Source of the DNA: Octopus vulgaris
Lineage: Eukaryota
Direction of reading: 5' to 3'
Length of the DNA stretch: 64,000 bases
Assembly (NCBI GenBank): GCA_951406725.2
Contig: OX597835.1
Coordinates: 1-64,000 of the forward strand
The notes beneath the pieces were generated by a model. That model saw only the letters and a program-made list of their open reading frames with translations, searched no databases and had not been told where the DNA came from. This document shows, piece after piece, positions 15,101 to 39,391 of this stretch. Position 1 is the first letter of the stretch. The number at the start of each line of letters is the position of its first letter. A program made the translations under genes and the position numbers.

Positions 15101-18100
15101 AGCTCCTGAATTACATGCCCCTGAATTATCTGCCCCTGAGTCCCTGAATTACATGCCCAGGAATTACCTGCCCCTAAATTACAAGCCCCTCAATTACCTA
15201 CCCATGAATTACATACACCTGAATTACATGCCCGTGAATTACCTGCCCCTAAAATACATACACCTGAATTACATGCCCGTGAATTACCTGCCCCTAAAAT
15301 ACATGCCCCTCAATTACCTGCCCATGAATTACATGCCCCTGAACTACATGCCCCTTAATTACATGTCCCTGAATTATCTGCCAATGAATGACATACCTCT
15401 AAATTACCTGCCCCTGAATTACCTGCCCCTGAATTACCCCTGAATTACATGCCCCTCAAATTACATGCATCTGAATTACATGCCCCTGAACTACGAACAC
15501 CTGAATTACCTGCCCCTCAATTACATGCCTCTTAATTACATGCACATGAATGATCTGACCCTGAATGATATGCCCGAATTATCTATCCCTAAATTACCTG
15601 CCCGGAATTACCTGCCAGTGAATGATATACCCCTGGATTAACTGCCCCTGAATAACCTGCCCCTGAATAACATACACCTGAATTACATGCCCCTGATTTA
15701 CCTGCCCCTGAATTACATGGCCTTCAATTACCTGCCCCTCAATTACATGCACCTAAATGACCTGCCCCTGAATTATCTATCCCTAAATTACCTGCCCGTG
15801 ATTGACATAACCCTGAATTACCTGCACCTAGATTACCTGCCCCTGCATTACATGCCCCTGGATTACCTAACCCAGAATTACAAGCCCCTGAATTACCTGC
15901 CCATGAATGACATTCCTCTAAATTACCTGTCCCTGAATTACCCCTGAATTACCTTCCCCTGAATTACCTGCCCCTAAATTACATGACTCTTAATTACATG
16001 CACATGAATGATCTGACCCTGAATGATGTGCCCCTGAATTACCTATCCCTAAATTACCCACCCGTGAATGACATGCCCCTGAATTACATACACCTGAATT
16101 ACATGCCCCTGAATTACCTGCCCCTGAATGACATGCCCCTGAATTGCATACCCCTGAATTACCTGCCCATGAATTACATGCCCCTGAATTACATGCAACT
16201 GATTTACATGCCCCTGAATTACATACACCTGAATTACACTCCCCTGAATTATCTACCCCTGAGTCCCTGAATAACCTGCACCTGAATTACATACACCTGA
16301 ATTACCTGCCCCTCAATTACCTGCCCATGAATTACCTGCCCATGAATTAAATGCCCCTGAAGTATCTGCCCCTAAATTACATGACCCTGAATGACCTGCC
16401 CCTGAATGACATGCCTCTGAATTACATGCCCCTGAATTACCTGCCCCTAAATTACCTGCAGATGAATGACATTCCTCTAAGTTACCTGGCCCTGAATAAC
16501 CCCTGAATTACCTGCCCCTGGATTACCTTCCCCTGAATTACATGCCCCTGAATTACATTCCTCTGAATTACCCACCCACGAATTACATGCCACTGAATTA
16601 TATGTGCCTGAATTACCTACCCCTGAATTACATACAGCTGAATTACAGACACCTGAATTACATGCCCCTCAATTACCTGCACCTCAATTACATGCCGCTG
16701 AATTACCTAACCCTGAATTACCTGCCCCTGAATTACATGCCCATGAATTACATGCACCTGAATTAAATGCCCCAGAATTACATGCCCCTGAATTACCTGC
16801 CCGTGAATTACCTACCCATGAATTAAATGCCCCTAAATTACCTTCCCCTGAAGTACCTGCCCCTAAATTACATGCATCTGAATTACGTGCCCATGAATTA
16901 CAAGCACCTGAATTACCTGCCTCTTAATTACATGCACCTGAATGACCTGCCCCTGAATTTCATGCCTCTGAATTATCTATCCCTAAATTAACTGCCCGTG
17001 AATGACATGCACCTCGATTACCTGCCCCTGGATTACCTGCCCATGAATGACATTCCTCTAAATTACCTGTCCCTGAATTACGCCTGAATTACCTGCACCT
17101 GGATTACCTTCCCCCGAATTACATTCCTCTGAATTACCCACCCACGAATTACATGCCCCTGAATTACATACACCTTCATTACGAGCCCCTCAATTACCTG
17201 CACCTCAATTACATGCCCCTGAATTACCTGCCCATGAATGACATTCCTATAAATTACCTCCCCCTGGTTTACCTTCCCCTAAATTACATTGCTCTGTATT
17301 ACCTGCCCCTGAATTACCTGCCAATGAATGACATTACTCTAAATCACCTGCACCTGGATTACCTTCCCCTCAATTACCCGCACATGAATTACATGCCCGA
17401 TTAACCTGCCCCTCAATGACATGCCCCTGAATTACATACCCCTGAATTACCTTCCCATAAATTACATACACCTGAATTACATGCCCGTGAATTACCTGCC
17501 CGTGAATTACCTGCCCCTAAATTACATGCCCCTGAATGACCTGCCCCTTCATTAGTTACCCCTGGATTACCTGCCCCTGAATAACCTGCCCCTGAATAAC
17601 ATACACCTGAATTACATGCCCCTCGATTACATGCCCCTGAATTACATGCAACTGATTTACATGCCCCTGAATTACATACACCTGAATTACATGCCCCTGA
17701 ATTATCTACCCCTGAGTCCCTGAATAACATGCCCCTGAATTACATACCCCTGAATTACCTGCCCCTGAATTACCTGCCCCTGAATGACATGCCCCTCAAT
17801 TACCTGCCCATGAATTACCTGCCCCCCAATTACCTGCCCATGAATTAAATGGCCATGAACTACCTGCCCCTAAATTACATGACCCTGAATGACCTGCCCC
17901 TGAATGACATGCCTCTGAATTATCTATCCCTAAATTACCAGCCCCTGAATTACCTGCCCGTGAATGACATGCCCTGAATTACCTTTCATCTGAATTACAT
18001 GCCCCTGGATTACCTGCCCCTGAATTACCCCTGAATTACCTGCCCCTGAATTACCTTCCCCTGAATTACATGCCCCTGAATTACATTCCTCTGAATTACC

Positions 18101-21100
18101 CACCCACGAATTACATGCCCCTGAATTACCTACCCCTGAATTACCTGCACCTCAATTACATGCCGCTGAATTACATAACCCTGAATTACCTGCACCTGAA
18201 TTACCTTCCCTGAATGACATGCCTCTGAATTATCTATCCCTAAATTACCAGCCCCTGAATTACCTGCCCGTGAATGACATGCCCTGAATTACCTTTCATC
18301 TGAATTACATGCCCCTGGATTACCTGCCCCTGAATTACCCCTGAATTACCTGCCCCTGGATTACCTTCCCCTGAATTACATGCCCCTGAATTACATTCCT
18401 CTGAATTACCCACCCACGAATTACATGCCCCTGAATTACCTACCCCTGAATTACCTGCACCTCAATTACATGCCGCTGAATTACCTAACCCTGAATTACC
18501 TGCACCTGAATTACCTTCCCTGAATGACATGCCCCTGAATAACGTGCTCCTGAATTACATACCCCTGAATTACCTGCCCATGAATTACATGCAACTGAAT
18601 TACATGCCCCTGAATTACCTGCCCCAGAATTACATGCCCCTGAAGTATCTACCCCTGAGTCCCTGAATAACCTGCACCTGAATTACCTGCCCCTGAATTA
18701 CATGCCCCTGAATTACCTGCCCTCAATTACCTGCCCGTGAACTACCTGGCCCTAAATTACATGCCCCTGAATTACCTGCCCATGAATTAAATGCCCCTAA
18801 ATTACCTTCACCTGAAGTACCTGCCCCTAAATTACATGCATCTGAATTACGTGCCCCTGAATTGCAAGCACCTGAATTACATGGCCCTGAATTACCTGTC
18901 TCTTAATTACATGCACCTGAATGACCTGCCCCTGAATGACATGCCTCTGAATTATCTATCCCTAAATTACCAGCCCCTGAATTACCTGCCCGTGAATTAC
19001 ATGCCCCTGAAATACATGCACCTCGATTACCTGCCCCTGAATTACCTGCCAATGAATGACATTCCTCTAAATTACCTGTCCCTGAATTACGCCTGAATTA
19101 CCTGCCCCTGGATTACCTTCCCCTGAATTACATGCCCCTGAATTACATACACCTGGATTACAAGCCCCTCAATTACCTGCACCTCAATTACATGCCCCTG
19201 AATTACATGCCCCTGAATTACCTGCCCATGAATGACATTCCTATAAATTACCTCCCCCTGGATTACCTTCCCCTCAATTACCCGCACATGAATTACATGC
19301 CCCTGAATTACCTGCCCCTGAATGACATTCCCCTGAATTACATACCCCTGAATTAGCTGCCCATAAATTACATACACCTGAATTACATGCCCGTGAATTA
19401 CCTGCCCGTGAATTACCTGCCCCTAAATTACATGCCCCTGAATGACATGCCCTCAATTACCTGCCCATGAATTACAAGCCCCTGAACTACCTGCCCCTTA
19501 ATTACATGCCCCTGGATTACCTGCCCCTGAATTACCTTCCCCTGAATTACATGCCCCTGGATTACCTGCCCCTTAATTACCTTCCCCTGAATAACATACA
19601 TTTGAATTACCTTCCCCTGAATTACCTGCCTCTGAATTACCTGCCCTGAATTACCTGCCCCTGAATTACATACCCCTGAATTACCTGCCCCTAAATAACA
19701 TGCATCTGAATTACCCGCCCCTGAATTACATGGCCCTGAATTACCTGCCTCTTAATTACATGCACCTGAATGACCTGCCCCTGAATGACATGCCTCTGAA
19801 TTATCTATCCCTAAATTACCAGCCCCTGAATTACCTGCCCGTGAATGAAATGCCCTGAAATACCTGCCCCTGAATTACATGCCCCTGAATTACAGGCCCC
19901 TGAATTACCTTTCCTCTGAATTACATACCCCTCAATTACCTGCCCCTGAATTACATGCCCATGAATGACATTCCTCTAAATCACCTGCACCTGAATTACA
20001 TGCCTCTGGTTTACCTGCCCCTTGATTACCTGCCCCTGAATTACATGCTGCTCAATTACCTGCACCTCAATTATATGCCCCTTAATTACATGCCCCATAA
20101 TTACATGCCCTGAATTACCTGCACCTGAATTACATAAACCTGAATTACATGCCCCTCAATTACCTGCCACTGAATTACCTTGCTCTAAATTACATGCCCC
20201 TTAATTACTTGACCCTGGATTACCTGACCCTAAATTACATGCATCTGAATTGCCTGCCCCTGAATTACAAACACCTGAATTACCTGACTCTTAATTACAT
20301 GCACCTGAATGACCTGCCCCTGAATGACATGCCTCTGAATAATTTATCCCTAAATTACCTGCCCGTGATTAACATGCCCCTGAATTACCTTTTATCTGAA
20401 TTACATGCCCCTGAATTACATACCCCTGAATTACCTGCCCCTGAATTACCTGCCCATGAATGACATTCTTATAAATTACCTGTCCCTTAATTACCTTCCC
20501 CTGAATTACATTCCTCTGAATACCTGCCCCTGAATTACCTGCCAATGAATGACATTACTCTAAATCACCTGCACCTGGATTACCTTCCCCTCAATTACCC
20601 GCCCATGAATTACATGCCCCTGAATTACCAGCCCCTGAATTACCTTCCCTGAATGACATGTCCCTGAATTACATACCCCTGAATTACCTGCCCATGAATT
20701 ACATGCCCCTGAATTACCAGCCCCTGAATTACCTTCCCTGAATGACATACCCCTGAATTACATGCACCTGAATTACATGCACCTGAATTTTCATGCACCT
20801 GAATTACATACACCTGAATTACCTGCCCCTGAACTATCTGCCCCTGAATTACCTGCCCCTCAATTACCTGCCCAAGAATTACATACACCTGAATTACATG
20901 CCCCTGAATTACCTGCCCCTCAATTACGTGCCCCTGAATTACATACCCCCTAAGTACCTGCCCCTAAATTACATGCATCTGAATTACCTGCCCCTGAATT
21001 ACCTGCCTCTTAATTACATGCCCCTGAATGACATGCCTCTGAATTATCTATCCCTAAATTACCTGCCCGTGATTGACATGCCCCTGAATTACCTTTCATC

Positions 21101-23795
21101 TGAATTACATGCCCCTGAATTACATACCCCTGAATTACATGCCCCTGAATTACCTGCCCCTGAATTACCTGCCCATGAATGACATTCCTATAAATTACCT
21201 GTCCCTTAATTACCTTCCCCTGAATTACGTTCCCCTGAATTACCTGCACCTCAATTACATGCCCCTGAATTACATGCCCCTCAACTACCTGCCACTGAAT
21301 TACCTTGCTCTGAATTACATACCCCTTAATTACTTAACCCTGGATTACCTGCCCCTGAATAACCTGACCCTCAATTACCTTCCCCTGAATTACCTGCCCC
21401 TTAATTACATGCACCTGAATGACCTGCCCCTGAATGACATGCCTCTGAATTACCTGCCCCTGAATAACCTGCCCATGAATGACATTCCTCTAAATTACCT
21501 GTCCCTGAATTACCCCTGAATTACATGCCCCTGGATTTCCTAACCCTGAATTACCTGCCCCTGAATGACAATCCTCTAAATTACCTTCCCTGAATTACCC
21601 CTTAATTACCCACCCATGAATTACATGCCCCTGAATTACATACACCTGAATTACATGCCCCTCAAATACCTGCACCTCAATTACCTGCCCATGAATTACA
21701 TGCCCCTGAACTACCTGCCCCTTAATTACATGCCCCTGGATTACCTGCCCCTGAATTACCTTCCCCTGAATAACATACATCTGAATAACCTAACCCTAAA
21801 TAACCTGACCCTGAATTACCTTCCCCTGAATTACCTGCCCCTGAATTACAAACACCTGAATTACCTGCCCCTCAATTACATGCCTCTTAATTACATGCAC
21901 CTGAATTATCTATCCCTAAATTACCTGCCCGTGAATGACATGCCCCTGAAATACCTGCCCCTGAATTACCTGCCCATGAATGACATTCCTATAAATTACC
22001 TGCCCCTGAATTACCTTTCATCTGAATTACATGCCCCTGAATTACATTCCTCTGAATTACCTGCCAATGAATGACATTCCTCTAAATCACCTGCACCTTG
22101 ATTACCTGCCCCTGAATTACATGCCCCTGAATTACATTCCCCTGAATTATCTGCCCCTGAGTCCCTGAATAACCTGCACCTGAATTACCTGCCCCTGAAT
22201 TACATACACCTGAATTACATGCTCGTGGATTACCTGCCCCTAAATTACATGCCAATGAATCACATACACCTGAATTACATGCCCGTGAATTACCTGCCCC
22301 TAAATTACCTGCCCCTGAACTACCTGCCCTTTAATTACATGCCCATGAATTACCTGCCCCTGAATAACATACACCTGAATTACCTGCCCATGAATTACAT
22401 ACCCCTGAAGTACCTGCCCCTAAATTACATGCATCTTAATTACCTGCCCCTCAATTGCAAACACCTGAATTACATGGCCCTCAATTACATGCCTCTTAAT
22501 TACATGCACCTGAATGACCTGCCTCTGAATTATCTATCCCTAAATTACCTGCCCGTGAATGACATGCCCCTGAATTACCTGCCCATGAATGACATTCCTA
22601 TAAATTACCTGCCCCTGAATTACCTTTCATCTGAATTACATGCCCCTGAATTACATTCCTCTGAATTACCTGCCCCTGAATTACCTGCCAATGAATGACA
22701 TTCCTCTAAATCACCTGCACCTGGATTACCTTCCCCTGAATTACATGCCCCTGAATTATCTGCCCCTGAGTCCCTGAATAACCTGCACCTGAATTACCTG
22801 CCCCTGAATTACATACACCTGAATTACATGCTCGTGAATTACCTGCCCCTAAATTACATGCCAATGAATCACATACACCTGAATTACATGCCCGTGAATT
22901 ACCTGCCCCTAAATTACCTGCCCCTGAACTACCTGCCCTTTAATTACATGCCCATGAATTACCTGCCCCTGAATAACATACACCTGAATTACCTGCCCAT
23001 GAATTACATACCCCTGAAGTACCTGCCCCTAAATAACATGCATCTGAATTACCTGCCCCTGAATTGCAAACACCTGAATTACATGGCCCTCAATTACATG
23101 CCTCTTAATTACATGCACCTGAATGACATGCCTCTGAATTATCTATCCCTAAATTACCTGCACCTAGATTACCTGCCCCTGAATAACATACCCTGGATTA
23201 CCTAACCCTGAATTACCTGCCCATGAATGACATTCCTTTAAATTACCTGTCCCTGAATTACCCCTGAATTACCTGCCCCTGGATTACCTTCCCCTAAATT
23301 ACATGCCCCTGAATTACATACACCTGAATTATATGCTCCTCAATTACCTGCACCTCAATTACATGCCCCTGAATTACATGCACCTGAATTACATTCCCCT
23401 GAATTACCTGCACCTGGATTACATAAACCTGAATTACCTGCCCCTGAATTACATGCCCCTCAATTAACTGCCTCAATTAACTACCTTGCTCTGAATTACA
23501 TGCCCCTTAATTACTTAACCCTGGATTACCTGCCCCTGAATAACCTACACCTGAATTACATACCCCTGAATTACATGCCCCTCAATTACCTGCCCGTGAA
23601 TTACATGGCCCTGAATTACATGTCCCTGAATTTCCTGCCCCTTAATTACATGCCCCTGAATTACCTGTCCCTGAAATACATGCACCTGGATTACCTGCCC
23701 CTGAATTTCCTGCGCCTGGACTACCTGCCTTGAATTACCTTCCCCTGAATTACCTGCCCCTGAATTACCTGTCCCTGAATTACATGTCCCTGAAT
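6172..23795. repeat. 15-bp satellite, consensus CCCCTGAATTAC(A/C)TG, ~17.6 kb (roughly 1,170 monomers), with higher-order repeats
   Basis: Uninterrupted 15-bp periodicity, visible as MPLNY/LPLNY pentapeptides in the ORF track. Diagnostic variants such as CCCCTGAGTCCCTGAATAACC recur. Confidence 0.97.
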
Positions 23796-23807
23796 GTATG
23801 AATATCT

Positions 23808-24210
23808 ATGTATGGACGCATGATGTGTGGACGAGGCTTGTGTGTATGGACGCATGATGTGTGAACGAGGCTTGTTTGTATGGACGCAAGATATGTGAAC
23901 GAGGCATATTTGTATGGACGCATGATGTGTGAACGAGGCTTGTTTGTATGAACGCATGATGTGTGAACGAGGCTTGGTTGTTTGGACGCATGATGTGTGA
24001 ACGAGGCTTGTTTGAATGGACGCATGATGTGTGAACGAGGTGTGTATGAGTGGACGCATGATGTGTGAACGTGGCTTGTTTGTATGGACGCATGATGTGT
24101 GAAAGAGGCTTGTTTGTATGGACGCATGATGTGTGAACGAGGCATGTTTGTATGGACGCATGATGTGTGAACGAGGCATGTTTGTATGGACGCATGATGG
24201 GTGAACGAGG
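23808..24210. repeat. 34-bp satellite array 1 (~12 copies; GTGAACGAGGCTTGTTTGTATGGACGCATGATGT)
   Basis: ACGAGG at 23831 and 23865 gives period 34. Units are head-to-tail with no spacers. Confidence 0.95.
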
Positions 24211-24737
24211 CAGCACTTATTCTTTCTAAGCCTAGTATTTATTCTAACTTATTCTTTTCTGCCGAGCCGCTGAAATACAGAGAGGAAAACACACCAGCAT
24301 TGTTTGAAAAATCTACTATAGCCCCGAGCCGACCAAAGCCTTGTGATTGGATTTGGTGGAAGGAAACTGGAAAACTCCAGTCATATATATGTTTATGTGT
24401 GCGTGTGTGTCTTTGTTCCCAAACATTGCTACACAACGGATGCTAGTCTGTTTACGTCCCCATAACTTAGAGGTTCAGCGAAATAGACTAATAGAATAAG
24501 CACTAGGCCTACAATGAATAAGTCCTGGGGTCGATATGCTCGACTAAAGGTCGTGCTCCAACATGGCCACAGTCAAATGACTGAAACAAGTAAATGAGAG
24601 TAAAAGAGTTAAATAACGAGAAAAGTCCATGACCTGTTAACTAGGGAGATCGCAGAAAATATCTCCTAGAGTTACTTCCCTAACGTCATATAATACGTTT
24701 CATGTTGTAATATCTGTAAGAAAGTAATAATGACATA
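24211..24737. repeat. SINE-composite block duplicated at 32715-33228
   Basis: Both copies start CAGCACTTATTCTTTCTAAGCC. ORFs 24239..24436 and 32743..32940 are near-identical. Confidence 0.85.
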
Positions 24738-24802
24738 ATCAAGTTTCTTTTTGTTTTATATAGTATATATGCGTATGTGGGTATATACACGTATATCTGT
24801 AA

Positions 24803-24837
<35 letters not shown>

Positions 24838-24944
24838 CTGGAGCGCCGCCTTTAGTCGATCACATCGTCCGCAGCACTTCTTTGTAAGCCTAGTATTTTA
24901 TTCTCTTTTGCCGAACCGCTAAAATACAGGGAGTAAAACAGCTA

Positions 24945-25185
24945 CAGTCGTTCGAAGGTAATGACCAAACTGTCTACTTTTATCCACCAGTTCCAACACG
25001 ATTTAACAAAAAAGGAGACAAATTGCTTGACTAGATTTCACTGCAAAGCCAGTAACATCTATGAACTTCCCAAAATCTACAAAAGGTAAGCCATAAACAA
25101 AACCTGTAACAAGTTAACTTCTATAGTTATAAATATTCCACACCCGAGAGATATCCGAATGAGGCCAATTATGGCCAATCCAGGT
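24945..25185 (+). mobile_element. Penelope-like element RT N-terminal fragment, copy 1
   Basis: Paralog of 27560-27805. Translates as ...KETNCLTRFHCKASNIYELPKIYK...RMRPIMA. Confidence 0.7.
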
Positions 25186-25319
25186 ATGTAGATACGGGAG
25201 GCATTGGGTGCTTAACACTCGCAAATCTGAAGTCGCTAAAGGTGCAATAAATTGAACTTCTTTTCATTTAGAACTTAGGGATCTGCAAATGTGGGTATCT
25301 TGGAGATGCTTAAAGTGTC

Positions 25320-27200
25320 TGCTGTAGCTGTAATCGTCGCACAAACAAACGAATAAAAACACAGTCGCTCACACACACGTACACACAAAAATAAAAACAT
25401 TCACACAAACACAGACACTGAAATGAAAATAGCAACACACACACATATAAAAAGTCCCACGCACACAAACACTGAAAAAAAAATTCTCACAAAAACACTC
25501 ACATACGCACAAAAAATAAAAATACAGATACATATTCACACACTCAAACACGCGGACAAACACAGAAATGAAAACAGTTACATACCTACACATGCACAAA
25601 CACAGACACACAAATACAAATGGAAAATACGGTAACACATCCAAACTCTAACACATTAACATACGCACAAACACATACACACAAACATAAGCACCCACAC
25701 ACAGAAATGAAAACACAGTTACACACTCACACATAAACCCTAACCCTAACTAGCACAAACATACAAGTTATTCAGAATGTAAAGGGGCATTGGGTGCTTT
25801 GCACTCGCAGTTAGAATATCAGCCCCCTCCACGCCAGTATGAGAATTTCTTTTATCCACTTGTGAAATTAATACGTTGTCGACACATGGGAAAAATATGA
25901 GCAACATCTGAAGTCACTAAAGGTGCAATAAATTGAACTTATTTTGATTTAGTAGTTAGTGATCTCAAATGTGGGTATCTTAGAAATGGTCAAAGTGCTT
26001 GTTGCATTTGTAAGTGTCGCACACACACAAACAAATAGAAACACTCAGTCGCTCACACACTCACGCACACAGAAATAAAAACACTCTCACACACACACAA
26101 ACAACCACTGAAATGAAAATACCCATACTCACATAAATAAAAACAGTCCCACACACACAAGGAGCCCCAATAGGTCTATCAAAAAAGTTTCTAGTATTTT
26201 TCCTAGCCCATAATTTATGATAATTGAAGTTCTTACAATAAATAAATACCTACTAAATCAGTACATCGAACATTACGTCCCCGTAACTTATCGGTTCTGC
26301 AAAAGAGACCTATACGTTAAGTAATAGGCATACAAAGAATAATTGCTGGGGTTGATTTGCTTGACTAAAGGCGGTGCTCCACCATGGTCACAGAGAAATA
26401 ACTGAAAGAGTATAAGAGCGACAAAGTGTATATTACGATAACTACATACTTAAGGGAGATAACTACATACTTAAGGGAGATAACTACAGAGTATCTTCTA
26501 CAGTTACTTCCCTTGAATATTATATTTTAACAATAATAAAATATTTTAGGATATTAACTCTCGGAAGGGAGATAACTAGATAACATCTTCCAGAGTTACT
26601 TTCCTTACATATAATTATTTTACTTTTATTAAATTATAATATGCGAGAGAAATAGCTCTAGAATATATAATTCAGACGTGACACACACCCTTTAACGCTT
26701 TTCTAGAGCAAATCGACACTAGGACTTACTCTATGACAGCCTAGAATATTATTTATTGGTCGTCTTTTCCCGAAGTTACTGGGGTGTAAAAAGACCAGCA
26801 TCAGTTGTCAAGCGGTTTTGGGGACACAGAAACATATATATAAATATCTATCTAGTTTACTGCTGAGAAAACCACGCGAGAGTGGTGGATTTGGAAAAGT
26901 AATATCATATAGACTCGAGACAGTTATTATCGCCTCGAGCCTATATGCTAGTAAAAGACATTTGCCTAACGTGCCACTCAGTGGGACTGAACTCGGAAGT
27001 AATTGTTAGGTAAGCAAGCTAATTCCCATTCAGACACTACTGTTTGTTAACCGGACAACTTCAATGTGAGCCCTAATTGTTGATATGCAAATGAGTTCAT
27101 TAATGGGGTCTGGAACTTTCGCGGCTGGGTCCCATAAGACAACGCAACAATCTTGGGTATGGGTGGACTGTCCTCACACACGCACAAACACACACACGTC
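25320..27200. repeat. Subtelomeric module copy C (AC-rich block with CCCTAA seed plus module head)
   Basis: 25320-26600 is colinear with 33675-34970. ORFs at 25423 and 33781 share MKIATHTHIKSP. Confidence 0.8.
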
Positions 27201-27363
27201 AAATAAATATTGACCAGCTGATCATTTACATTTCACTACACCCCACAAATATATAAAGTAATAATGTTATCTAGTACTACTCTTCGGACATAATCAAGTT
27301 TCATTTTTGTTTTAGATTATATATATATGCGTGTGTGGGTATATATACGTATATCTGTATGTG

Positions 27364-27420
<57 letters not shown>

Positions 27421-27559
27421 TGGAGCGCCGCCTTTAATCGAGCACATCGTCCGCAGCACATATTCTTTGTAAGCCTAGTATTTATTCTAACTTGTTCTCT
27501 TTTGCCGAACCGCTAAAATACAGGGAGTAAAACACACCTGTATCGGTTAAAAGCATCAA

Positions 27560-27805
27560 CAACTACAGTCAATCGAAGATAATGACCAAACTGTCTACTC
27601 TTATCCACCAGTTCCAACACGGTTTAACAAACAAGGAGACAAATTGCTTGACTAGATTTGACTGCAAAGCCAGTAACATCTATGGACTTCCCAAAATCTA
27701 CAAAAGTTGAGCCAAAAACAAAACCTGTAACAAGTTAACTTCTATAGTCATAAATATTCCACACCCGAGAGATCTCCGAATGAGGCCAATTATGGCCGAT
27801 CAAGG
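27560..27805 (+). mobile_element. Penelope-like element RT N-terminal fragment, copy 2
   Basis: Manual translation from 27582 gives MTKLSTLIHQFQHGLTNKETNCLTRFDCKASNIYGLPKIYKS*...PHPRDLRMRPIMA, matching the YGLPK(I/V)HK...RPI motifs of Penelope RTs. Confidence 0.75.
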
Positions 27806-28288
27806 TATGTATATACGGGGTGCTTAACACTCGCAAATCTGAAGTCGCTAAAGGTGCAATAAATTGAACTTCTTTTCATTTAGAAATTAGGGATATACAA
27901 ATGTGGGTATCTTAGAGATGCTTAAAGTGTTTGTTGTAGCTGTAATTGTCGCACACACACAAACGAATAAAAACACACAGAGGCTCACACACACTTACAC
28001 ACAGAAATAAAATCATTCACACATACACAAACACTGAAATGAAAACAGTTACATACCTACACACGCACAAACACACACACACATATAGCAACGAAAAAGA
28101 CACAATTACACATCCAAACTCTCACACACTCACATACGCACAAACACAAACACACAAATGAAAATACAGATACATATTCACACTCAAACACGCGGTCAAA
28201 CACAGAAATTAGAACAGTTACATACGTACACATGCACAAACACACAGACACACACAAATAGAAATGAAAAATACAGTTACACACTCAC

Positions 28289-28419
28289 TAACCCTGAATT
28301 ACATGCCCCTGAAGTACCTGCTCCTCAATTACATGCCCCTTAATTACCTGCCCCTGAATTACCGTCCCATGAATTACGTGCCCCTGAATTACCTGTCCCT
28401 GAATTAAAAGCCCCTGAAT
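28289..28419. repeat. Short 15-bp satellite stub (~9 copies)
   Basis: Same CCCCTGAATTAC monomer as 6172-23795. Confidence 0.92.
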
Positions 28420-28430
28420 GTATGAAAATC

Positions 28431-29840
28431 TATGTATGGACGCATGTGTGAACGAGGCTTGTGTGTATGAACGCATGATGTGTGAACGAAGCTTGTTTGT
28501 ATGGACGAATGATGTGTGAACGAAGCTTGTTTGTATGGACGAATGATGTGTGAACGAGGCTTGTTTGTATGGACGCATGATGTGAACGAGGCATATTTGT
28601 ATGGACGAATGATGTGTGAACGAGGCTTGTTTGTATGGACGCATGATGTGTGAACGAGGCTTGTTTGTATTGACGCATGTGTGAACGAGGCTTGTTTGTA
28701 TAGACACATGACGGGTGAACGAGGCTTGTTTGTATGGACGCATTACGGGTGAACGAGGATTGTTTCTATGGACGCATGACGGGTGAACGAGGATTGTTTG
28801 TATGGACGCATGACGGGTGAACGAGGCTTGTTTGTATAGACGCATGTGTGAACGAGGCTTGTTTGTATAGACGCATGACGGGTGAACGAGGCTTGTTTGT
28901 ATAGACGCATGACGGGTGAACGAGGCTTGTTTGTATAGACGCATGATGTGTGAACGAGGCTTGTTTGTATGGAAGCATGATGTGTGAACGAGGCTTTTTT
29001 GTATGGACGCATGACGTGTAAACGAGGCTTGTTTGTATGGACGCATGACGTGTGAACGAGGCTTGTTTGAATGGACGCATGACGGGTGAACAAGGCTTGT
29101 TTGTATGGACGCATGACGGGTGAACGAGGCTTGTTTGTATGGACGCATGACGGGTGAACGAGGCTTGTTTGTATGGACGCATGACGGGTGAACGAGGCTT
29201 GTTTGTATGGACGCATGATGTGTTAACGAGGCTTGTTTGTATGGACGCATGTGTGAACGAGGCTCGTTTGTATAGACGCATGACGTGTGAACGAGGCTTG
29301 TTTGTATTGACGCATGACGGGTGAACGAGACTTGTTTGTATGGACGCATGACGGGTGAACGAGGATTGTTTGTATGGACGCATGACGGGTGAACGAGGAT
29401 TGTTTGTATGGACGCATGACGGGTGAACGAGGCTTGTTTGTATGGACGCATGACGAGTGAACGAGGCTTGTTTGTATGGACGCATGACGGGTGAACGAGG
29501 CTTGTTTGTATGGACACATGACGGGTGAACGAGGCTTGTTTGTATGGACGCATGACGGGTGAACGAGGCTTGTTTGTATAGACGCATGAAGGGTGAACGA
29601 GGCTTGTTTGTATGGACGCATGACGGGTGAACGAGGCTTGTTTGTGTGCACGCATGATGTGTGAACGAGGCGTGTATGTATGGACGCATGATGTGTGAAC
29701 GAGGCTTGTTTGTATGGACGCATGATGGGTAACCGAGGCTTGTTTGTGTGGACGCATGACGAGTGAACGAGGCTTGTTTGTATGGACGCATGATGTGTGA
29801 ACGAGGCTTGTTTCCATGGACGCATGATGTGTGAACGAGG
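28431..29840. repeat. 34-bp satellite array 2 (~42 copies)
   Basis: Same monomer as array 1. A GACGGGTGA variant dominates ~28700-29630, and some 31-bp deletion units are present. Confidence 0.96.
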
Positions 29841-29901
29841 CTAACCCCAACCCTAACCCCGACCCTGAAACTAACCCTAACCCAACCCAACCCAACCCCA
29901 A
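29841..29901 (-). repeat. Interstitial degenerate telomeric tract (~10 repeats)
   Basis: CTAACCCCAACCCTAACCCCGACCCTGAAACTAACCCTAACCCAACCCAACCCAACCCCA, in the same polarity as the terminal array. Confidence 0.88.
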
Positions 29902-30002
29902 TCGTAATGTAATTACATGTAAGGGAAGTAACTGTGGAAAATCTTGTACCTATTTCCCTTTCTAGAGTCACTTCCCTAGAATATATAATTTAATACATAA
30001 TA

Positions 30003-30337
30003 GGCGCAGCAGTGGTAAGTAGCTTGCTAACCAACCACATAGTTCCGGGTTCAGTCCAATTGCGTGGCATCTTGGGCAAGTGTCTCCTGCTATAGCCCCG
30101 GGCCGACCAATGCCTTGTTAGTGGATTTGGTAGACGGAAACTGAAGGAAGCCTGTCGTATGTATATGTATATGTGTGTGTGTTTGTCCCCCTAGCATCGC
30201 TTGACAACCGATGCTGGTGTATTTAGGTCCCCGTCACTTAGCGGTTCGACAAAAAGAGACCGATAGAATAAGTACTAAAAGGTGGTGCTCCAGCATGGCC
30301 GCAGTCAAATGACTGAAACAAGTAGAAGAGTAAAAGT
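30003..30337 (+). mobile_element. tRNA-derived OK-like SINE, near full length
   Basis: GGCGCAG head, B-box-like GGTTCAGTCC, internal (TA/TG)n tract and (AAGAGTA) tail. Confidence 0.85.
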
Positions 30338-30429
30338 AATTTAATTAGATATAATGGAACTCGGGAAGATTTTAGAGTTATCTTCCTTCGTATAGTTACT
30401 TACCTTCACGTTATAAGTTAATAATAATA

Positions 30430-30927
30430 TAGAAGGGGAGTAACTCTAGAAAGGGAGATAACTAAAAAATCTTTCAGAGTCACCTCCCTTACATCTAATT
30501 AAATAACTATTATGTATTATTAAATTGTAAAGTTCAATGGGGGATAACTTTAAAAATCTTCAAAAGTTACCTCCCTTACATTTAAATACATGACTATTAT
30601 CAAAATGTATTATGGAAGCTAATTAACTCTACAATATAATGTTCAGATGTACCGCATACACTTTTACTCTTTTCCTTGTTTAGTCATTTCACTGTGCCAC
30701 TGCTAGAGCACAGCCTTTTCTAGAGCAAATCGACACTAGGACTTTTATCTACGTCAGTCTAGTATTTATTCTGTTGGTCTTCTTTTCCCGAACGGATAAG
30801 TTAATGGAGTGTAAAAAACACCGGCATTGGTTGTCAAGCGGTTTTGGGGACACCGAAACATACACACATATACATATATATAAATATCTATATGTATATA
30901 CATGTTTCTCTCTCTATATATATATAT
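30430..30927. repeat. Paralog of the telomere-adjacent sequence 1396-1898 (106-bp repeat remnants plus SINE fragment)
   Basis: Colinear from AAGGGGAGTAACTCTAGAAAGGGAG through to the (TA)n tract before the LINE. Confidence 0.9.
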
Positions 30928-32640
30928 TGCAAAAACAATACTGCTGTCTTTAGTGTTCCCACTGATATTGACGTAAGAGAAGCGAACGAAGTTGACTCCC
31001 AACACAAAATTGCAGACAACCTTCACTCCCACTGACATCGTAGCAGCAATAAATGAGGTCAAATACTACTCTGCTGTAGGCCCTGATAGGATTCCCCGTT
31101 AGTCTCCTGAAGGAATGTAAACACCAACTTGCAGTCCCACTGACCAACCTCTGGAGAAATTCGTTACATGCAGGTTATATACCAAAACAGTTTCTATCCC
31201 AGTCAGTCATCCCGGTTTTCAAACAGGGAAACAGATCCCTCGCACTCAACTATCGCCCAATCTCACTCACCTCCCACATCATCAAAGTGTTTGAAAGAGT
31301 GTTAAGATCAAGGATGGCTGACTTCCTGGAGACCCACAAACTCCTAAATGCAAAACAGCATGGCTTTCGCTGTGGCAGGGACTGTCTAACACAGCTCTTA
31401 CACCACATTGAAGTTCTACACTGGATCAAGTATTTCCTGGCGAATACAACACATGTTGTAGTTGATGGAGTCCACTCAAGCCCAGCAAAAGTCACCACCA
31501 GCGGTGACCCCCAGGGGACTGTCTTGGGTCCGCTACTCTTCATAATCTACATAAACGACCTTTCCAGTGTCGTACATTACTGCAAAGTGAAAATATTTGC
31601 TGATGACACCAAGCTCCAGTAAATCGTCAATGAAGAAGCAGACCGAACTCAACTCCAGTCTGATCTATATGCTGTGAGTCAATGGGCAAACAGAAACAAA
31701 ATACAACTAAACGAGGGAAAATTTGAGCTGATGCATTTTGGAAGAAACTCCTCACTAAAACAGCCATACTCTCTTCCTTCAGGGGAACCGCTCACAGACT
31801 CTAACAATATCAGAGAACTGGGTGTAATTGTTGATGACCATCACAGTTGGAGTGCACACATCAACAAGAAGGTCGATATAGCTCGTAGGATGAGTTCCTG
31901 GATCTTAAGAACTTTCCGGTCCAGAGAACAAGGTGTCATCATACCACTTTTTTCCTCCTTTGTACGGCCACACCTTGAATACTGCTGCCCACTGTGGTCT
32001 CCTCAAACAAGACTAAACATCTCCAGAATTGAGTCACCCCAGAGGGCACTCACTAAACGAATTGAAGGCATGGCTGCTCTCGATTACTGGGATTGCCTTA
32101 AAGCCTTGAAACTTTACTCCCTCCAGCGTGAGCGGTACATCATTTGTACGATGTGGAAAATATACCGCCAACTATGCCCAAACGACCTAAACATTAGCTT
32201 CAAGGTTCATCCAAGACTTGGACCACGGGCTATACGTCCCCTGCCCAATTCAAGATCACAACATACATGTACACTGCAACATAATTTCTTTTCCTCAACA
32301 GGCCCTGCCCTATTTAACATTGTCCCGAGAGAGATCAAAGAGGAAAAGGATCCCATCAATTTTAAACAGAGTCTGGATAGATTCCTTCAAAGAATACCAG
32401 ATAAGCCACCCATAATTGGATACAAGTCACCCAACAAGAACTCACTACTTGAACAAAACTGGATACAACTCACCCAACAAGAACTCACTACTTGAACAAA
32501 ACTGGATACAACTCACCCAACAAGAACTCACTACTTGAACAAAATTTGACTTAAACAGGATTCGAATAATCCTATCAGGTGGTGCTATTAAGTTAGACAT
32601 GTCCTGGACCAATCTTTGGTCGAAACATATCTAAGTTTAT
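30928..32640 (+). mobile_element. 5'-truncated CR1/L2-type LINE (RT, C-terminus and 3' UTR), pseudogenised
   Basis: GDPQGTVLGP, FADDTK, RPHLEYCCPLWSP. Carries a ~130-bp internal deletion at ~31411, a stop at ~31620 and a 3' hairpin GACCAATCTTTGGTC. Confidence 0.93.
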
Positions 32641-34287
32641 ATATATCTGATATATCTTTATAAATATATATATATATATATATACCAATCTATCTTCTTC
32701 GAGCACATCGTCAGCAGCACTTATTCTTTCTAAGCCTAGTATTTATTCTGACTTATTCTTTTCTGCCGAGCCGCTGAAATACAGGGCGAAAAACACACCA
32801 GCATCGTTTGAAAAATCTACTATAGCCCCGAGCCGACCAAAGCCTTGTGATTGGATTTGGTGGAAGGAAACTGGAAAACTCCAGTCATATATATGTTTAT
32901 GTGTGCGTGTGTGTCTTTGTTCCCAAACATTGCTACACAACGGATATTAGTCTGTTTACGTCCCCATAACTTAGAGGATCAGCGAAAGAGACTGATAGAA
33001 TAAGCACTAGGCCTACAATGAATAAGTCCTGGGGTCGGTATGCTCGACTAAAGGTCGTGCTCCAACATGGCCACAGTCAAATGACTGAAACAAATGAGAG
33101 TAAAAGAGTAAATAACGAGAAAAGTCCATGTTCACTAGGGAGATAGCAGAAAATATCTCCTAGAGTTACTTCCCTAACGTCATATAATACGTTTCATGTT
33201 GTAATATCTGTAATAAAGTAATAATGACACTCGAAGGGCACACGAGAATGCATTCACGTACTATCACACATGTAGATGCAAGTTTTCTTAATAAAACGGA
33301 AAGAACTCACATTCCATGCCTTAGCTTCTTTTTTGTTTTAGACACTACATATACGTGCGTGGGTATATACACGTATATCTGTATGTGTATGTCTGGGTAA
33401 AACAGACATTCGCGGTTGGGTCACAACCGATGCGGCAACCTTGGGTAGGTGTGGACTGTGCTCACACACGAACAAATACCCACACTTCCGCACTCATGCA
33501 CATAGATACATGCAAAGCTATTTTATGTTTTCAATAAGTTGTGCCCTTCGAGTGCGAACAAACGCACACACACACACACACGCACACATTTAAACATATA
33601 TACGATGGTATTTTATCAGTTTCCTTCCACTAAATCCAATCACAAGGATTAGGTCGGCCTTGGGGTACAATAGTGTTTGTTGTAGCTGTAATTGTCGCAC
33701 AAACAAACGAATAAAAACACAGTCGCTCACACACACGTACACACAAAAATAAAAACATTCACACAAACACAGACACTTAAATGAAAATAGCAACACACAC
33801 ACATATAAAAAGTCCCACGCACACAAACACTGAAAAAAAAATTCTCACAAAAACACTCACATACACACAAAGACAAACACAAATAAAAATACAGATACAT
33901 ATTCACACACTCAAACACGCGGACAAACACAGAAATGAAAACAGTTACATACCTACACATGCACAAACACAGACACACACAAATACAAATGGAAAATACG
34001 GTAACACATCCAAACTCTCACACACTAACATACGCACAAACACACACACAAACATAAGCACCCACACACAGAAATGAAAACGCAGTTACACACTCACACA
34101 TAAAACCCTAACCGTAACTAGCACAAACATACAATTTATTCAGAATGTAGAGGGGCATTGGGTGCTTTGCACTCGCAGTTAGAATATCAACTCCCTCCAC
34201 GCCTATATTAGAATTTCTGTCATCCACTTGTGAAATTAATACATTGACGACACATGGGAAAAATATGAGCAACATCTGAAGCCACTA

Positions 34288-35015
34288 AAGGTGCAATAAA
34301 TTGAACTTATTTTGATTTAGTATTTAGTGATCTCAAAAGTGGATATCTTACAAATGGTCAAAGTGTTTGTTGTAGTTGTAAGTGTCGCACACACACAAAC
34401 AAATAGAAACACTCAGTCGCTCACACACTCGCGCACACAGAAATAAAAACACTCTCACACACAAACACTGAAATGAAAATACCCACACTCACATAAATAA
34501 AAACAGTCCCACACACACAAGGAGCCCCAATAGGTATATCAAAAAAGTTTCTAGTATTTTTCCTAGCCCATAATTTATGATAATTGAAATTCTTACAATG
34601 AATAAATACCTACTAAATCAGTATATCGAACATTACGTCCCCGTAACTTATCGGTTCTGCAAAAGAGACCTATACATTAAGTAATAGGCATACAAAGAAT
34701 AATTCCTGGGGTTGATTTGCTTCACTAAAGGCAGTGCTCCACAATGGTCACAGTGAAATAACTGAAACAGTCTAAGGGAGATAACTACAAAGTATCTTCT
34801 ACAGTTACTTCCCTTGAATATTATAATTTAACAATAAAAAAAATATGAAGGGAGATTAACTCGCGGAAGGGAGATAACTACATAACATCTTCCAGAGTTA
34901 CTTTCCTTACATACAATTATATTACTTTTAATAAATTATAATGAGCAAGAGGAAGTAACTTTCGAATATATTATTCAGACATGGCAATATATATATATAG
35001 ATATATATATGTATG

Positions 35016-35074
<59 letters not shown>

Positions 35075-36134
35075 CACCTATCTATATACCACGGGCTACT
35101 TTCTGTTTCGGTGTACCAAATCTACTCAGAAACGTTGGTCTGTCCGAGGCTATATTGGAAGACACTTGCCCATGGGGCCACATAGTTGGACAGAACCAGA
35201 AACACCGTGTTTGGAAAGCAAGCTACATAGCCACTCTTACTGCTTATATATATATATATATATATATATACATACGACAGTCTTCTTTTAGTTTCCGTCT
35301 CCCAAATCCACTCACAAGGCTTTGAGCGTCCCGAGACTATAGTAGAAGACATTTGCCCAACATGCCACCCAGTGGGACTGAACACGGAAACATTTGTTAG
35401 GTAAGCAAGCTAATTCCCATTCAGACACTACTGTTTGGTAACCGGACAAGTTCAAGGCGAGAATTAATTGTTTGTATGCAAATGAGTTCATTAATGTGGT
35501 CCGGAACTTTCATGGCTGGTTCTTATGAGACAATGCAACCAGCTTGGGTATAGGTGGACTGTGCTCACACACGCACAAACTCTCACACGTCCACACCCAC
35601 GAATATAGATACATGCAAAGACGCAATCTCGTACCTATTTATGTTTTAAATATGTTGACCTTAAAACTGAGACATTCTGGAAACACACGTCCGCACCCAG
35701 GCACAAAGATACATCCATATACGCAAACTCGTAGCTATTTATGTTTTAAACATGTTGACCTTTAAACCGTGACATTCTGTGTCTGTTTGTGCTCGCATTT
35801 CAGCGAGAATGATTGCTCACGAACCGCAATGTGCTGAGTTCAAACCAACAGCGTTGCACCTTTGGCAAGTGTATTCGACTATAGCCTAGGGCCGACCAAT
35901 GTTTTCTGAGTGGAGTTTGTAGAGGGAAACTGAAATAGCCGTCGTATACATGAATATCGACGTATGAATGGCTATGTTGTAAGTAGTTTGCTTACGAACC
36001 ACATGGTTTCGGGTTCATTCCGACTGCCTGTCATCTTCTGCAATTGTCTACTATTGTAGCCCAGGGCCTAGCTAATCCTTGTGATGGGATTTAGTGGAAC
36101 AAAACTGACAGAATCTCGTCGTACATATATTTAA

Positions 36135-36171
<37 letters not shown>

Positions 36172-36363
36172 TTTGCACTCGAAGGGCACACGAGAATGCA
36201 CGCACGCACGTACTATCACACATACAGATGCAAGTTTTCTTAATAAAACGGAAAGAACTCCCATTCCATCCCTTACAGTTTCTTTTTGTTTTAGATACTA
36301 CATTTACGTGTGTGGGTATATACACGTATATCTGTATGTGTATATATATATATATATATATAA

Positions 36364-36414
<51 letters not shown>

Positions 36415-37325
36415 TATATAAATATATATATATACATATATATATATATACGACGCAATATACGACATATAAATACACAAACACATACATGTGTGTGTGT
36501 GTGTGTGTGTGCGTGTATATATATAAATGTGCAATAAATTAAACTTATTTTGATTTAGTATTTAGTGATCTCAAATGTGGGTATCTTACAAATGGTCAAA
36601 GTGTTTGTTGTAGTTGTAAGTGTCGCACACACACAAACAAATAGAAACACTCAGTCGCTCACACACTCGCGCATGCAGAAATAAAAACACTCTCACACAC
36701 AAACACTGAAATTAAAATACCCACACTCACATAAATAAAAACAGTCCCACACACACAAGGAGCCCCAATAGGTATATCAAAAAAGTTTCTAGTATTTTTC
36801 CTAGCCCATAATTTATGATAATTGAAGTTCTTACAATAAATAAATACCTACTAAATCAGTATATCGAACATTACGTCCCCGTAACTTTTCGGTTCTGCAA
36901 AAGAGACCTATGCATTAAGTAATAGGCATACAAAGAATAATTCCTGGGGTTGATTTGCTTCACTAAAGGCGGTGCTCCACCATGGTCACAGTGAAATAAC
37001 TGAAATAGTCTAAGAGCGACAAAGTGTATATTACGATAACTACATACTTAAGGGAGATAACTACAAAGTATCTTCTACAGTTACTTCTCTTGAATATTAT
37101 AATTTAACAATAAAAAAATATGAAGGGAAATTAACTCTCGGAAGGGAGATAACTAGATAACATCTTCCAGAGTTACTTTCCTTACATATAATTATATTAC
37201 TTTTAATAAATTATAATGAGCAAGATAACTGCTCTCTCTAGTGAGTCGGATGTCCCATTATGGCCATCCCATATATGTTTAAATATCTATATGTATATAC
37301 ATATATCTATCAATATATACCTATG

Positions 37326-37381
<56 letters not shown>

Positions 37382-37456
37382 TATACTTTATTTTAAGCAG
37401 CAGAAAATTCAGTACTCTTTTTTCCACCTTGTTTCACATTTATGTGTTTACTCCGG

Positions 37457-37487
<31 letters not shown>

Positions 37488-37651
37488 ATCTATATACCAC
37501 GGGCTACTTTCTGTTTCGGTGTACAAAATCTACTCAGAAACGTTGGTCTGTCTGAGGCTATATTGGAAGACACTTGCCCATGGGGCCACGCAGTTGGACT
37601 GAACCAGAAACACCGTGTTTGGAAAGCAAGCTACATAGCCACTCTTACTGC

Positions 37652-37699
<48 letters not shown>

Positions 37700-38250
37700 C
37701 GACAGTCTTTTTTTAGTTTCCGTCTCCCAAATCCACTCACAAGGCTTTGGCTCGTCCCGAGACTATAGTAGAAGACATTTGCCCAACATGCCACCCAGTG
37801 GGACTGAACTCGGAAACATTTGTTAGGTAAGCAAGCTAATTCCCATTCAGACACTACTGTTTGTTAACCGGACAAGTTCAAGTCGAACCCTAATTGTTTG
37901 TATGCAAATGCGTTCATTAATGTGGTCCGGAACTTTCACGGCTGTTTCTTATGAGACGATGCAACCAGCTTGGGTATAGGTGGACTGTGCTCACACACGC
38001 ACAAACACTCACACGTCCACACCCACGAATATAGATACATGCAAAGACGCAATCTCGTACCTATTTATGTTTTAAATATGTTGACTTTAAAACTGAGACA
38101 TTCTGAAAACACGTCCGCACTCATGCACATAGATACATGCATATACACAAACTCGTAGCTATTTATGTTTTAAACATGTTGACCTTTAAACCATGACATT
38201 CTGTGTCTGTTTGTGCACGCATTTCTGTGAGAATGATTGATCACGAACGG
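34288..38250. repeat. Two head-to-tail subtelomeric modules (D 34288-36526, E 36527-38250)
   Basis: Paired ORFs 34981/37260 and 35544/37970. Both modules are colinear with 3246-5624. Confidence 0.85.
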
Positions 38251-38345
38251 TAAATTTTGGAGTCAATCCGACGGGATGTAGTGGTCTTTAAACCGTTCCA
38301 GACAAACAAACAAACAAACTTTTCGCATTTCAGTTTTATAAATAG

Positions 38346-38931: not shown

Positions 38932-39391
38932 AGGAGTGATATTAGTAGAGGCCAGAGCCCATGGAGAACTAGCCCGTAGATTTAGAAAAGCTCTGAAAGA
39001 GACCAAACTCAACATTAAAATTGTTGAAAAGCCAAGGAACTCCGTCAGGTCACAATTATGAAGGACATGCCCGTTTAAGAATACCATATGCACAATTGAT
39101 AACTGCATGGCATGTAGAATTAGCCCTGGTATTAACTGTAGAACTCGAAATGTAGTTTACAATATAAGATGCATAGAAGGTGCTTGTAAGGACATGAACA
39201 TGATGTACATAGAAGAGACGTCTAAGAGCATTGCGGAACGGATAAATGAACATTTAAGACAACTTGACGACAGAAAACAGTCTTCTATACTCTACCAACA
39301 TGCCAAAGACCACCATGGAGATAACTTGGATCAACCTGACATCCGCATCTTATCCAAGCACCCAGCCCCCATCCCTGCTTTTCAATGCTAA
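38932..39391 (+). mobile_element. Penelope-like element 3' fragment with a degenerate GIY-YIG endonuclease
   Basis: ORF 39107..39391 contains CRTRNVVYNIRC...MYIEETSKSIAERINEH...HAKDHH, the VVY...YIGET...R..EH pattern. Confidence 0.82.

Follow-up and report, generated by a model that had tools for sequence, protein, structure and literature searches.

A putative relic telomere boundary within a duplicated subtelomere of Octopus vulgaris

Organization of the left end of scaffold C22

The window, the whole stretch of 64,000 nucleotides that was analysed (G000:C22:1-64000), is the left end of the 50.8 Mb scaffold C22 and contains no N. From the scaffold end inward its features are as follows.

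1-757, + strand: terminal telomere, (CCCTAA)n, with variant repeats at its inner side
758-1577, + strand: telomere-adjacent 102-106-bp repeats of the cap lineage
1637-1895, no strand: SINE-like fragment and (TA)n, with a counterpart at 30654-30923
1896-2737, + strand: 5′-truncated LINE, its 3′ side also cut
2734-6171, + strand: duplicated modules, 90-91% identical to 34043-36168
6172-23795, + strand: 15-bp satellite, 17.6 kb in the window and 0.4-17.6 kb at other ends
23809-24211, + strand: distal 34-bp satellite, joined with 2-bp microhomology to a copy of the sequence from 32716 onward, breaking a SINE-like piece
24212-28291, + strand: second set of duplicated modules
28292-29841, + strand: short 15-bp satellite and 34-bp satellite, the inner end of the putatively captured cap
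29842-29900, + strand: buried degenerate telomere tract in terminal polarity
29901-30653, + strand: telomere-adjacent flank, homologous to the live junctions C22R, C13L and C24, with a SINE-like interruption at 30004-30336
30004-30336, no strand: SINE-like insertion, present in a clade of ten copies and missing from five other copies examined
30654-30923, no strand: SINE-like fragment and (TA)n
30924-32684, + strand: 5′-truncated LINE with an RT remnant (PF00078, E 7.5e-13), a complete 3′ end and a (TA)n tail
32686-38300, + strand: modules of the buried unit
38300-64000, + strand: core subtelomeric duplicon, 97-99.7% identical on C27, C7, C19 and others, with ORF remnants of retroelements only

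The internal CCCTAA tract (about 29841-29900; 10.2 copies and 79% matches in TRF) has the polarity of the terminal telomere at 1-757 and directly abuts the 34-bp satellite at 28433-29842. Its best 60-bp window contains 8 AACCC motifs, compared with a maximum of 3 in 200 block shuffles. Inward of the tract, remnants of the 106-bp repeat occur at 29900-30003 and 30331-30600, the flank being split by the 333-bp SINE-like insertion; the label 'SINE-like' reflects the presence of further copies scattered through the window and a very high depth of contigs. A SINE-like piece is shared by 1637-1861 and 30654-30892, the LINE begins after (TA)n, 1 kb inward of the tract, at the same base in both copies (1896 and 30924), and 1396-2391 aligns with 30433-31419 at 92.0% identity. 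An earlier sequence-only reading of this DNA had described a degenerate tract of about 60 bp in terminal polarity, followed by 106-bp-repeat remnants, a SINE fragment and a LINE with the same 5′ truncation as the copy near the terminus, and all of these were recovered. LINE copies at 51801 and 60636 extend upstream of the shared start into endonuclease-coding sequence, so the truncation is a real derived marker and a natural 5′ end of the element is ruled out. The buried LINE is complete to its 3′ terminus (about 32684), whereas its counterpart near the scaffold end is truncated at 2737.

Between 24 and 64 kb, 56 ORFs encode 100 aa or more. Eleven were scanned against Pfam, and the remainder are repeat-derived or of low complexity by inspection. 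The 11 scanned gave matches to RT, endonuclease and PHD only, with no helicase among them, and coding cargo beyond retroelement remnants was rejected for the ORFs scanned. Degenerate ORF pieces at 39062-39391 and 27540-27800 resemble, by eye, a Penelope GIY-YIG endonuclease and RT; the piece at 39062-39391 has no Pfam match. Local duplications occupy 48220-62440 (48875-50726 and 52774-54715 at 94%; 50898-52479 and 59732-61312 at 98.7%), and a near-full-length LINE with an endonuclease domain is located amid them.

The inner junction of the buried tract

At its inner edge the tract can be aligned with the corresponding edge of long telomere arrays at C22R, C13L and C24 (81-87% over 145-167 bases), and the flank of the degenerate tract is homologous to the DNA beside those terminal tracts. 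Because this inner junction is homologous to live telomere junctions, the buried tract is interpreted as a relic telomere-subtelomere boundary, in agreement with the earlier proposal that a former chromosome end is present here. The terminal junction of the window itself is of a different type, and together with the live-junction homology this indicates that the buried unit copies a living class of ends, not C22L itself. The claim that the tract is followed by a copy of the telomere-adjacent sequence therefore holds in that the flank is homologous to live junctions, but the type is that of C22R, C13L and C24 rather than the window's own. Live ends such as C13L have the flank, LINE, modules and core in the order of the buried unit, without satellite.

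Twelve copies of one junction

A 16-base pattern placed over the satellite-tract junction has 12 exact matches in the genome, versus 1 for the reversed control. The copies are on C22, C27, C19, C7 (two), C20, C30, C28, C15, C10, C52 and C53, and in all those read the satellite is broken at one phase, where 2 bases (CT) could belong to either side. When 32 copies of the segment comprising flank and LINE are placed in a tree, ten buried copies form one clade (99/98), and the terminal caps together with the distal C15 copy form a separate clade (100/99), about 94% identical to the buried one. This tree omits a deletion-bearing cap copy from C7, a duplicate from C30, the copies at C27:36.163 and C5:106.12 Mb, and four partial matches. 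Within the ten-copy clade the sequences adjacent to the interstitial telomeric sequence (ITS) are 98.5-99.8% identical, compared with 93.5-94.6% to the cap clade; the buried copies of C15 and C10R fall outside both clades (94-95%). The SINE-like insertion at 30004-30336 is restricted to the ten-copy clade. As this clade combines a common junction with a clade-limited insertion, burial appears to predate the spread of the structure.

The satellite-telomere junction would, on this evidence, have arisen once and then been copied, and a private history of C22L is ruled out by a junction common to 12 loci. The proposal that this end was itself eroded and extended finds no support in that form: the junction probably has a single origin and was copied, and its ten flank copies are 1.3-14.7 substitutions per kb apart. 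The view that the distal ~30 kb is a duplicated terminal segment is supported. Many contigs carry near-identical copies of the DNA on both sides of the junction. From one end to another, caps diverge by no more than about 1%, whereas cap and buried unit within the window are only 90-92% alike. Cap size ranges from 3 kb (C52) through 12 kb (C10R) to 29 kb (window), mostly as a result of variation in the 15-bp satellite.

Buried tracts are about 55-105 bp in length. The present tract does have the ~10 repeats to which the end was supposed to have eroded, but the C10R copy retains ~105 bp, so the present 60 bases need not equal the length at capture and the erosion itself is uncertain. The buried C10R flank clusters with the terminal flank of C10R (95/94), which implies conversion or local duplication; a single origin requires that conversion came later. 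In the buried unit, 5 informative sites place C27 with C22 and C19; the cap does not show this grouping, which hints weakly at exchange between cap and buried unit. Some of the copies, namely C52, C53 and perhaps C19/C27, may represent alleles or redundant haplotypes, in which case the count of 12 is too high.

Continuity of the sequence across the junction

Four public runs, carrying four organism labels, were compared against 29700-30700. Run X10 has an exact 85-base short-read contig over 29816-29900, across the junction, with 26 bases on the satellite side, fewer than the 31 of the bridging rule. Contigs from run X3 (29889-30039, 1 difference) and run X12 (29904-30039, no difference) both include the SINE insertion point, and no single contig among the pieces listed for the four runs spans the whole of 29700-30700. 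Satellite and telomere repeats are common sites of misjoining and the assembly does have miscalled telomeres, but a contig join at 29.8 kb is almost certainly not the explanation: the window is N-free, the junction is present at 11 other places, with lineage-specific variants among the 12, and the X10 contig matches exactly. In this respect the order on which the earlier reading depended is supported. Part of the stretch also occurs in data sets that may be RNA, but it includes SINE-like DNA and is therefore not taken as a sign of transcription.

The subtelomeric duplicon and its placement in the assembly

The window matches C27, C7, C19, C20, C28, C30 and C5 over tens of kb at 96-99.7% identity. 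A 351-base core marker has 41 matches, 38 of them full length at 89-100%, often in pairs 37-52 kb apart, and the junction sits inside a subtelomeric duplication of more than 40 kb. On C1-C30, 14 of 33 marker matches are less than 400 kb from a scaffold end (at 11 ends, 12 facing outward; 0.28 expected) and 19 are more than 400 kb away; this set omits six matches on C31, C52 and C53 and two weak matches on C1, and the binomial P for the enrichment at ends is overstated, as it treats paired copies as independent.

By placement, two of the 12 junction copies are at scaffold ends, two are on the unplaced contigs C52 and C53, which start with telomere, and eight are interior, megabases from scaffold ends by coordinates. 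Reading outward from C27, C19 and C28 leads to a telomere tract at 16-21 kb and then a 100-N gap, and from C20 and C30 to a gap that interrupts the 15-bp satellite 12-14 kb away. On C7, the outer of the two copies leads without a gap to a 22-kb head-to-head telomere array, the inner C7 copy lying 47.7 kb behind; no gap was found in C7 59.55-59.67 Mb. Outward of the C15 copy, another buried tract follows after 18 kb and a gap after 67 kb, with no long telomere before that gap. The telomere arrays of the interior caps reach 6-22 kb, and several contain (CCTGG)n or (TTAAAA)n, matching the pattern of strand-specific nanopore miscalls. CCCTGG and TTAAAA are described as strand-specific nanopore miscalls of telomeres in the available part of one report (PMC9414165). 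The C7 array (C7:59,563,571-59,585,549), a gap-free TTAGGG/CCCTAA structure in mid-scaffold, could be assembler-joined ends or a telomere fusion.

A terminal telomere is present at only 4 of the 60 ends of C1-C30 (C22L, C22R, C13L and C10R), a tally that excludes an inverted telomere array at 3-20 kb of C17L, and at least nine interior telomere tracts abut gaps. No gaps occur in 464 kb of control stretches, which are scaffold tips and hence biased. As the interior junction copies mostly lead outward to telomere tracts or gaps, most are likely misplaced chromosome ends, although long interstitial arrays also break contigs and a neighbouring gap is no proof of an end. The sequence-only reading had held that a block common at non-terminal loci would refute a former end; by coordinates 8 of the 12 copies are non-terminal, but most lead to telomere tracts or gaps and their position is likely a product of scaffolding. 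Many true ends of this assembly probably lie within scaffolds; the core marker offers a means to locate and move them.

Turnover and other buried tracts

Four ends with the same type of cap have lost the tract by deletion. At C5 and the second C30 end the 15-bp satellite is joined to the equivalent of window position 32686, at the second C27 end the 34-bp satellite is joined to position 31227, and at C31 the loss is by recombination between module copies. Neo-telomeres are present inside the block at window positions 27187 (C52, 3-base microhomology) and 38896 (C28). There is no tract in the stretches read at the second core copies of C27, C28, C5, C30, C10 and C13.

At C28:20,831,809-20,946,391, the core duplicon bears a neo-telomere of 527 bases that is itself capped by 34-bp satellite, about 95 kb long and inverted relative to the satellite in the window. 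The satellite array was read as four stretches, with 20.87-20.915 Mb covered only partly; beyond it come three 410-bp units of tract and flank in tandem, then a miscalled telomere and finally a gap. Within the satellite, C28:20,837,340-20,843,018 is occupied by an LTR-retroelement-like insertion of 5.7 kb whose ends are repeated. The site at C5:106,112,757-106,119,900 has a 13-bp satellite that caps a 2-kb degenerate tract, then a 67-bp satellite, a short tract and a diverged flank, with no gap in 26 kb outward. At C15:59,807,530-59,807,927 the buried tract is interrupted by a templated insertion of 85 bp, whose source is LINE sequence about 0.9 kb further in, and at C31:7,116,786-7,118,580 a 1.8-kb degenerate tract on a diverged flank is followed by non-family DNA, gap-free for 20 kb. 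A fusion-like structure of short tract, filler and inverted tract is found on four contigs, C31, C33, C42 and C48, as exemplified by C31:9,865,811-9,868,197 with its 1.7-kb filler of 18-bp repeats. Tracts capped by other DNA occur on C15, C31 (two sites), C33, C42 and C48, and in three cases the outer neighbour of a buried tract is satellite. C42:76,160-80,873 is a fold-back (inverted) junction of two cap copies. The independent buried tracts on C28, C5, C15 and C31 indicate that burial is recurrent.

Origin of the buried junction

In the history that we consider likely, a microhomology-level event attached a satellite-ended terminal segment to an uncapped end, and ectopic exchange then distributed the product. 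The capture probably took place once, onto the inner stump of a former telomere, with the terminal segment of another end as donor. In this sequence of events, a LINE would have inserted beside a telomere, and the junction lineages would then have diverged by about 5-6%. An uncapped end and a 34-bp satellite array would next have been joined, by template switching/break-induced replication (BIR) or by an end-joining translocation, providing a ready-made cap with its own telomere. One descendant would have received the SINE insertion, the SINE-bearing version would have reached ten loci by ectopic exchange, and satellite expansion and the duplication or deletion of modules would have followed. 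The two routes of joining are indistinguishable because they leave the same junction, and the 2-base microhomology fits both. A search of the genome with the telomerase profile PF12009 gave no match and its control was likewise without signal, so the search is uninformative; telomerase may act alongside, as the neo-telomere junctions suggest.

It is unlikely that a Y′-like unit was instead added repeatedly to shortened ends by invasion of the tract or flank, each tract marking its own extension. Tandem units separated by a tract do occur on C7 (47.7-kb period), C10R and C15, as do the three 410-bp units at the C28 end, the buried C10R flank does cluster with its own terminal flank, and tract lengths do vary. 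The outer breakpoint and the inner junction letters are, however, identical across all buried tracts, cap and buried unit in the window are 90-92% alike while caps across ends differ by about 1% or less, the second core copies on six scaffolds have no tract in the stretches read, and none of the 11 ORFs scanned encodes a helicase. A terminal fragment, tract plus flank, might alternatively have been inserted or copied into a satellite-bearing subtelomere, with no addition beyond a real end here. The satellite junction at 24211/24212, which has no tract, flank or LINE, resembles the empty site for such an event, and the 85-bp templated insertion in the C15 tract establishes that template switching occurs there. 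This account is nevertheless very unlikely, as the supposed empty site is a derived state: it breaks a SINE-like piece of which 32700-32730 holds an intact version, making insertion of a cassette into it improbable. C13L-type live ends retain the order of flank, LINE, modules and core without satellite, and no target-site duplication is visible.

If the interior placements were correct, the block could be a dispersed interstitial duplication or a large mobile element with telomere-like DNA. This would accommodate the 19 of 33 marker matches on C1-C30 that are distant from scaffold ends, and also the degenerate tracts of 1.8-2 kb on C31 and C5 and the C15 tract, beyond which non-telomeric DNA continues gap-free for at least 20 kb. 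It is highly improbable given interior caps that end in arrays of up to 6-22 kb, often miscalled, and then 100-N gaps, terminal telomeres at so few scaffold ends, and no transposase or helicase among the ORFs scanned. Helitron termini have the sequence CTRR; a Helitron-type terminus at the junction (CTAA) was considered and dropped, as the second satellite junction lacks it and no Rep/helicase ORF was found among those scanned. Beside the seeding of telomeres, satellite might have been captured repeatedly onto telomere stumps, with the telomere rebuilt further out so that ends grow in layers, but we regard this satellite-first rescue as doubtful. The cases that it would bring together are the 34-bp satellite, which occurs in either orientation and reaches about 95 kb on C28, and the 13-bp satellite on C5. 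Capture of a satellite-ended terminal segment by an uncapped end, followed by ectopic exchange, is therefore the history we prefer.

Comparison with known systems

In HeT-A/TART, TRAS, Athena and MoTeR, the 3′ end of a retroelement is joined directly to telomere repeats. The octopus structure differs from such telomere-targeted retroelements, as the tract is abutted by satellite, not by a retroelement 3′ end, and the LINE lies 1 kb inward. The kind of structure described here is already known outside cephalopods, in human, yeast, worm and fungi. In the available portions of the human studies, internal (TTAGGG)n islands are telomere-oriented and located at duplicon boundaries beside subterminal-like DNA (Ambrosini 2007, PMC2323237; Stong 2014, PMC4032850); the ITS-adjacent copies are 90% alike mutually versus 85% to subterminal copies, and a short 11p allele terminates at an internal tract (PMC2323237; PMC4032850). 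As far as these accounts extend, the octopus tract is similar in being degenerate, in terminal orientation, at a duplicon boundary, beside DNA of the type that adjoins terminal tracts, and common to many ends; its ITS-adjacent copies also resemble one another more than they do the terminal ones. It differs in that the outward DNA is satellite, the corresponding identities are 98.5-99.8% and about 94%, and there are no genes in the ORFs scanned.

In the new subtelomere of chromosome VR in C. elegans CB4856, little is left of the old telomere; duplicated DNA follows this remnant and a new telomere closes the end, which is read as repair of a damaged end in the sections available (Kim 2019, PMC6581047). 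Insertions on human chr6p with a short repeat block are similarly presented as an old end extended by duplicated DNA, in the accessible text of that paper (PMC11707537). Judged from those sections, the octopus DNA beyond the relic likewise duplicates other subterminal DNA and ends in telomere, but the worm and chr6p cases are single-end events attributed to TALT or ITS homology, whereas the octopus junction has 2-base microhomology and is copied to many ends. Relics in Pyricularia, as set out in the available part of one study, are former telomeres internalised by duplicative capture of subterminal DNA, with later deletions centred on the relics (Rahnama 2021, PMC8381367). On that description the octopus shares a probable internalised former telomere and later deletions at relics, but not the telomere-targeted retroelement MoTeR, and capture is here inferred from sequence.

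In S. cerevisiae, according to the available excerpts of two reports, the X-ITS-Y′ arrangement has a terminal unit split from the inner subtelomere by a telomeric tract of 20-500 bp, at some ends only, and Y′ is a defined unit of 5.2-6.7 kb with a conserved helicase ORF and ARS (PMC13177704; PMC6410037). The earlier analogy with Y′, so far as these excerpts go, holds for layout, a terminal unit beyond a telomeric tract that is present or absent among ends, and fails in content. The octopus cap consists of satellites and TE debris, 3-29 kb in all, and, as no helicase was found in the ORFs scanned, it is not a Y′ element. Tandem units do occur on C7, C10R and C15, with variable length and with cap and buried unit 90-92% alike. 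A literature search, mostly of open-access sources and covering titles, abstract openings and parts of PMC13218726, found no cephalopod report, consistent within that coverage with the earlier reading, which was aware of no description in this group.

Significance

The mechanism itself is not new biology, and it is the spread, recurrence and assembly placement that add detail to a known kind of structure. Together, these data provide a first sketch of subtelomere structure in octopus, with a shared duplicon of more than 40 kb, a datable buried junction, and several independent burials, deletions and neo-telomeres, and so make the failure and repair of germ-line telomeres in a cephalopod testable.
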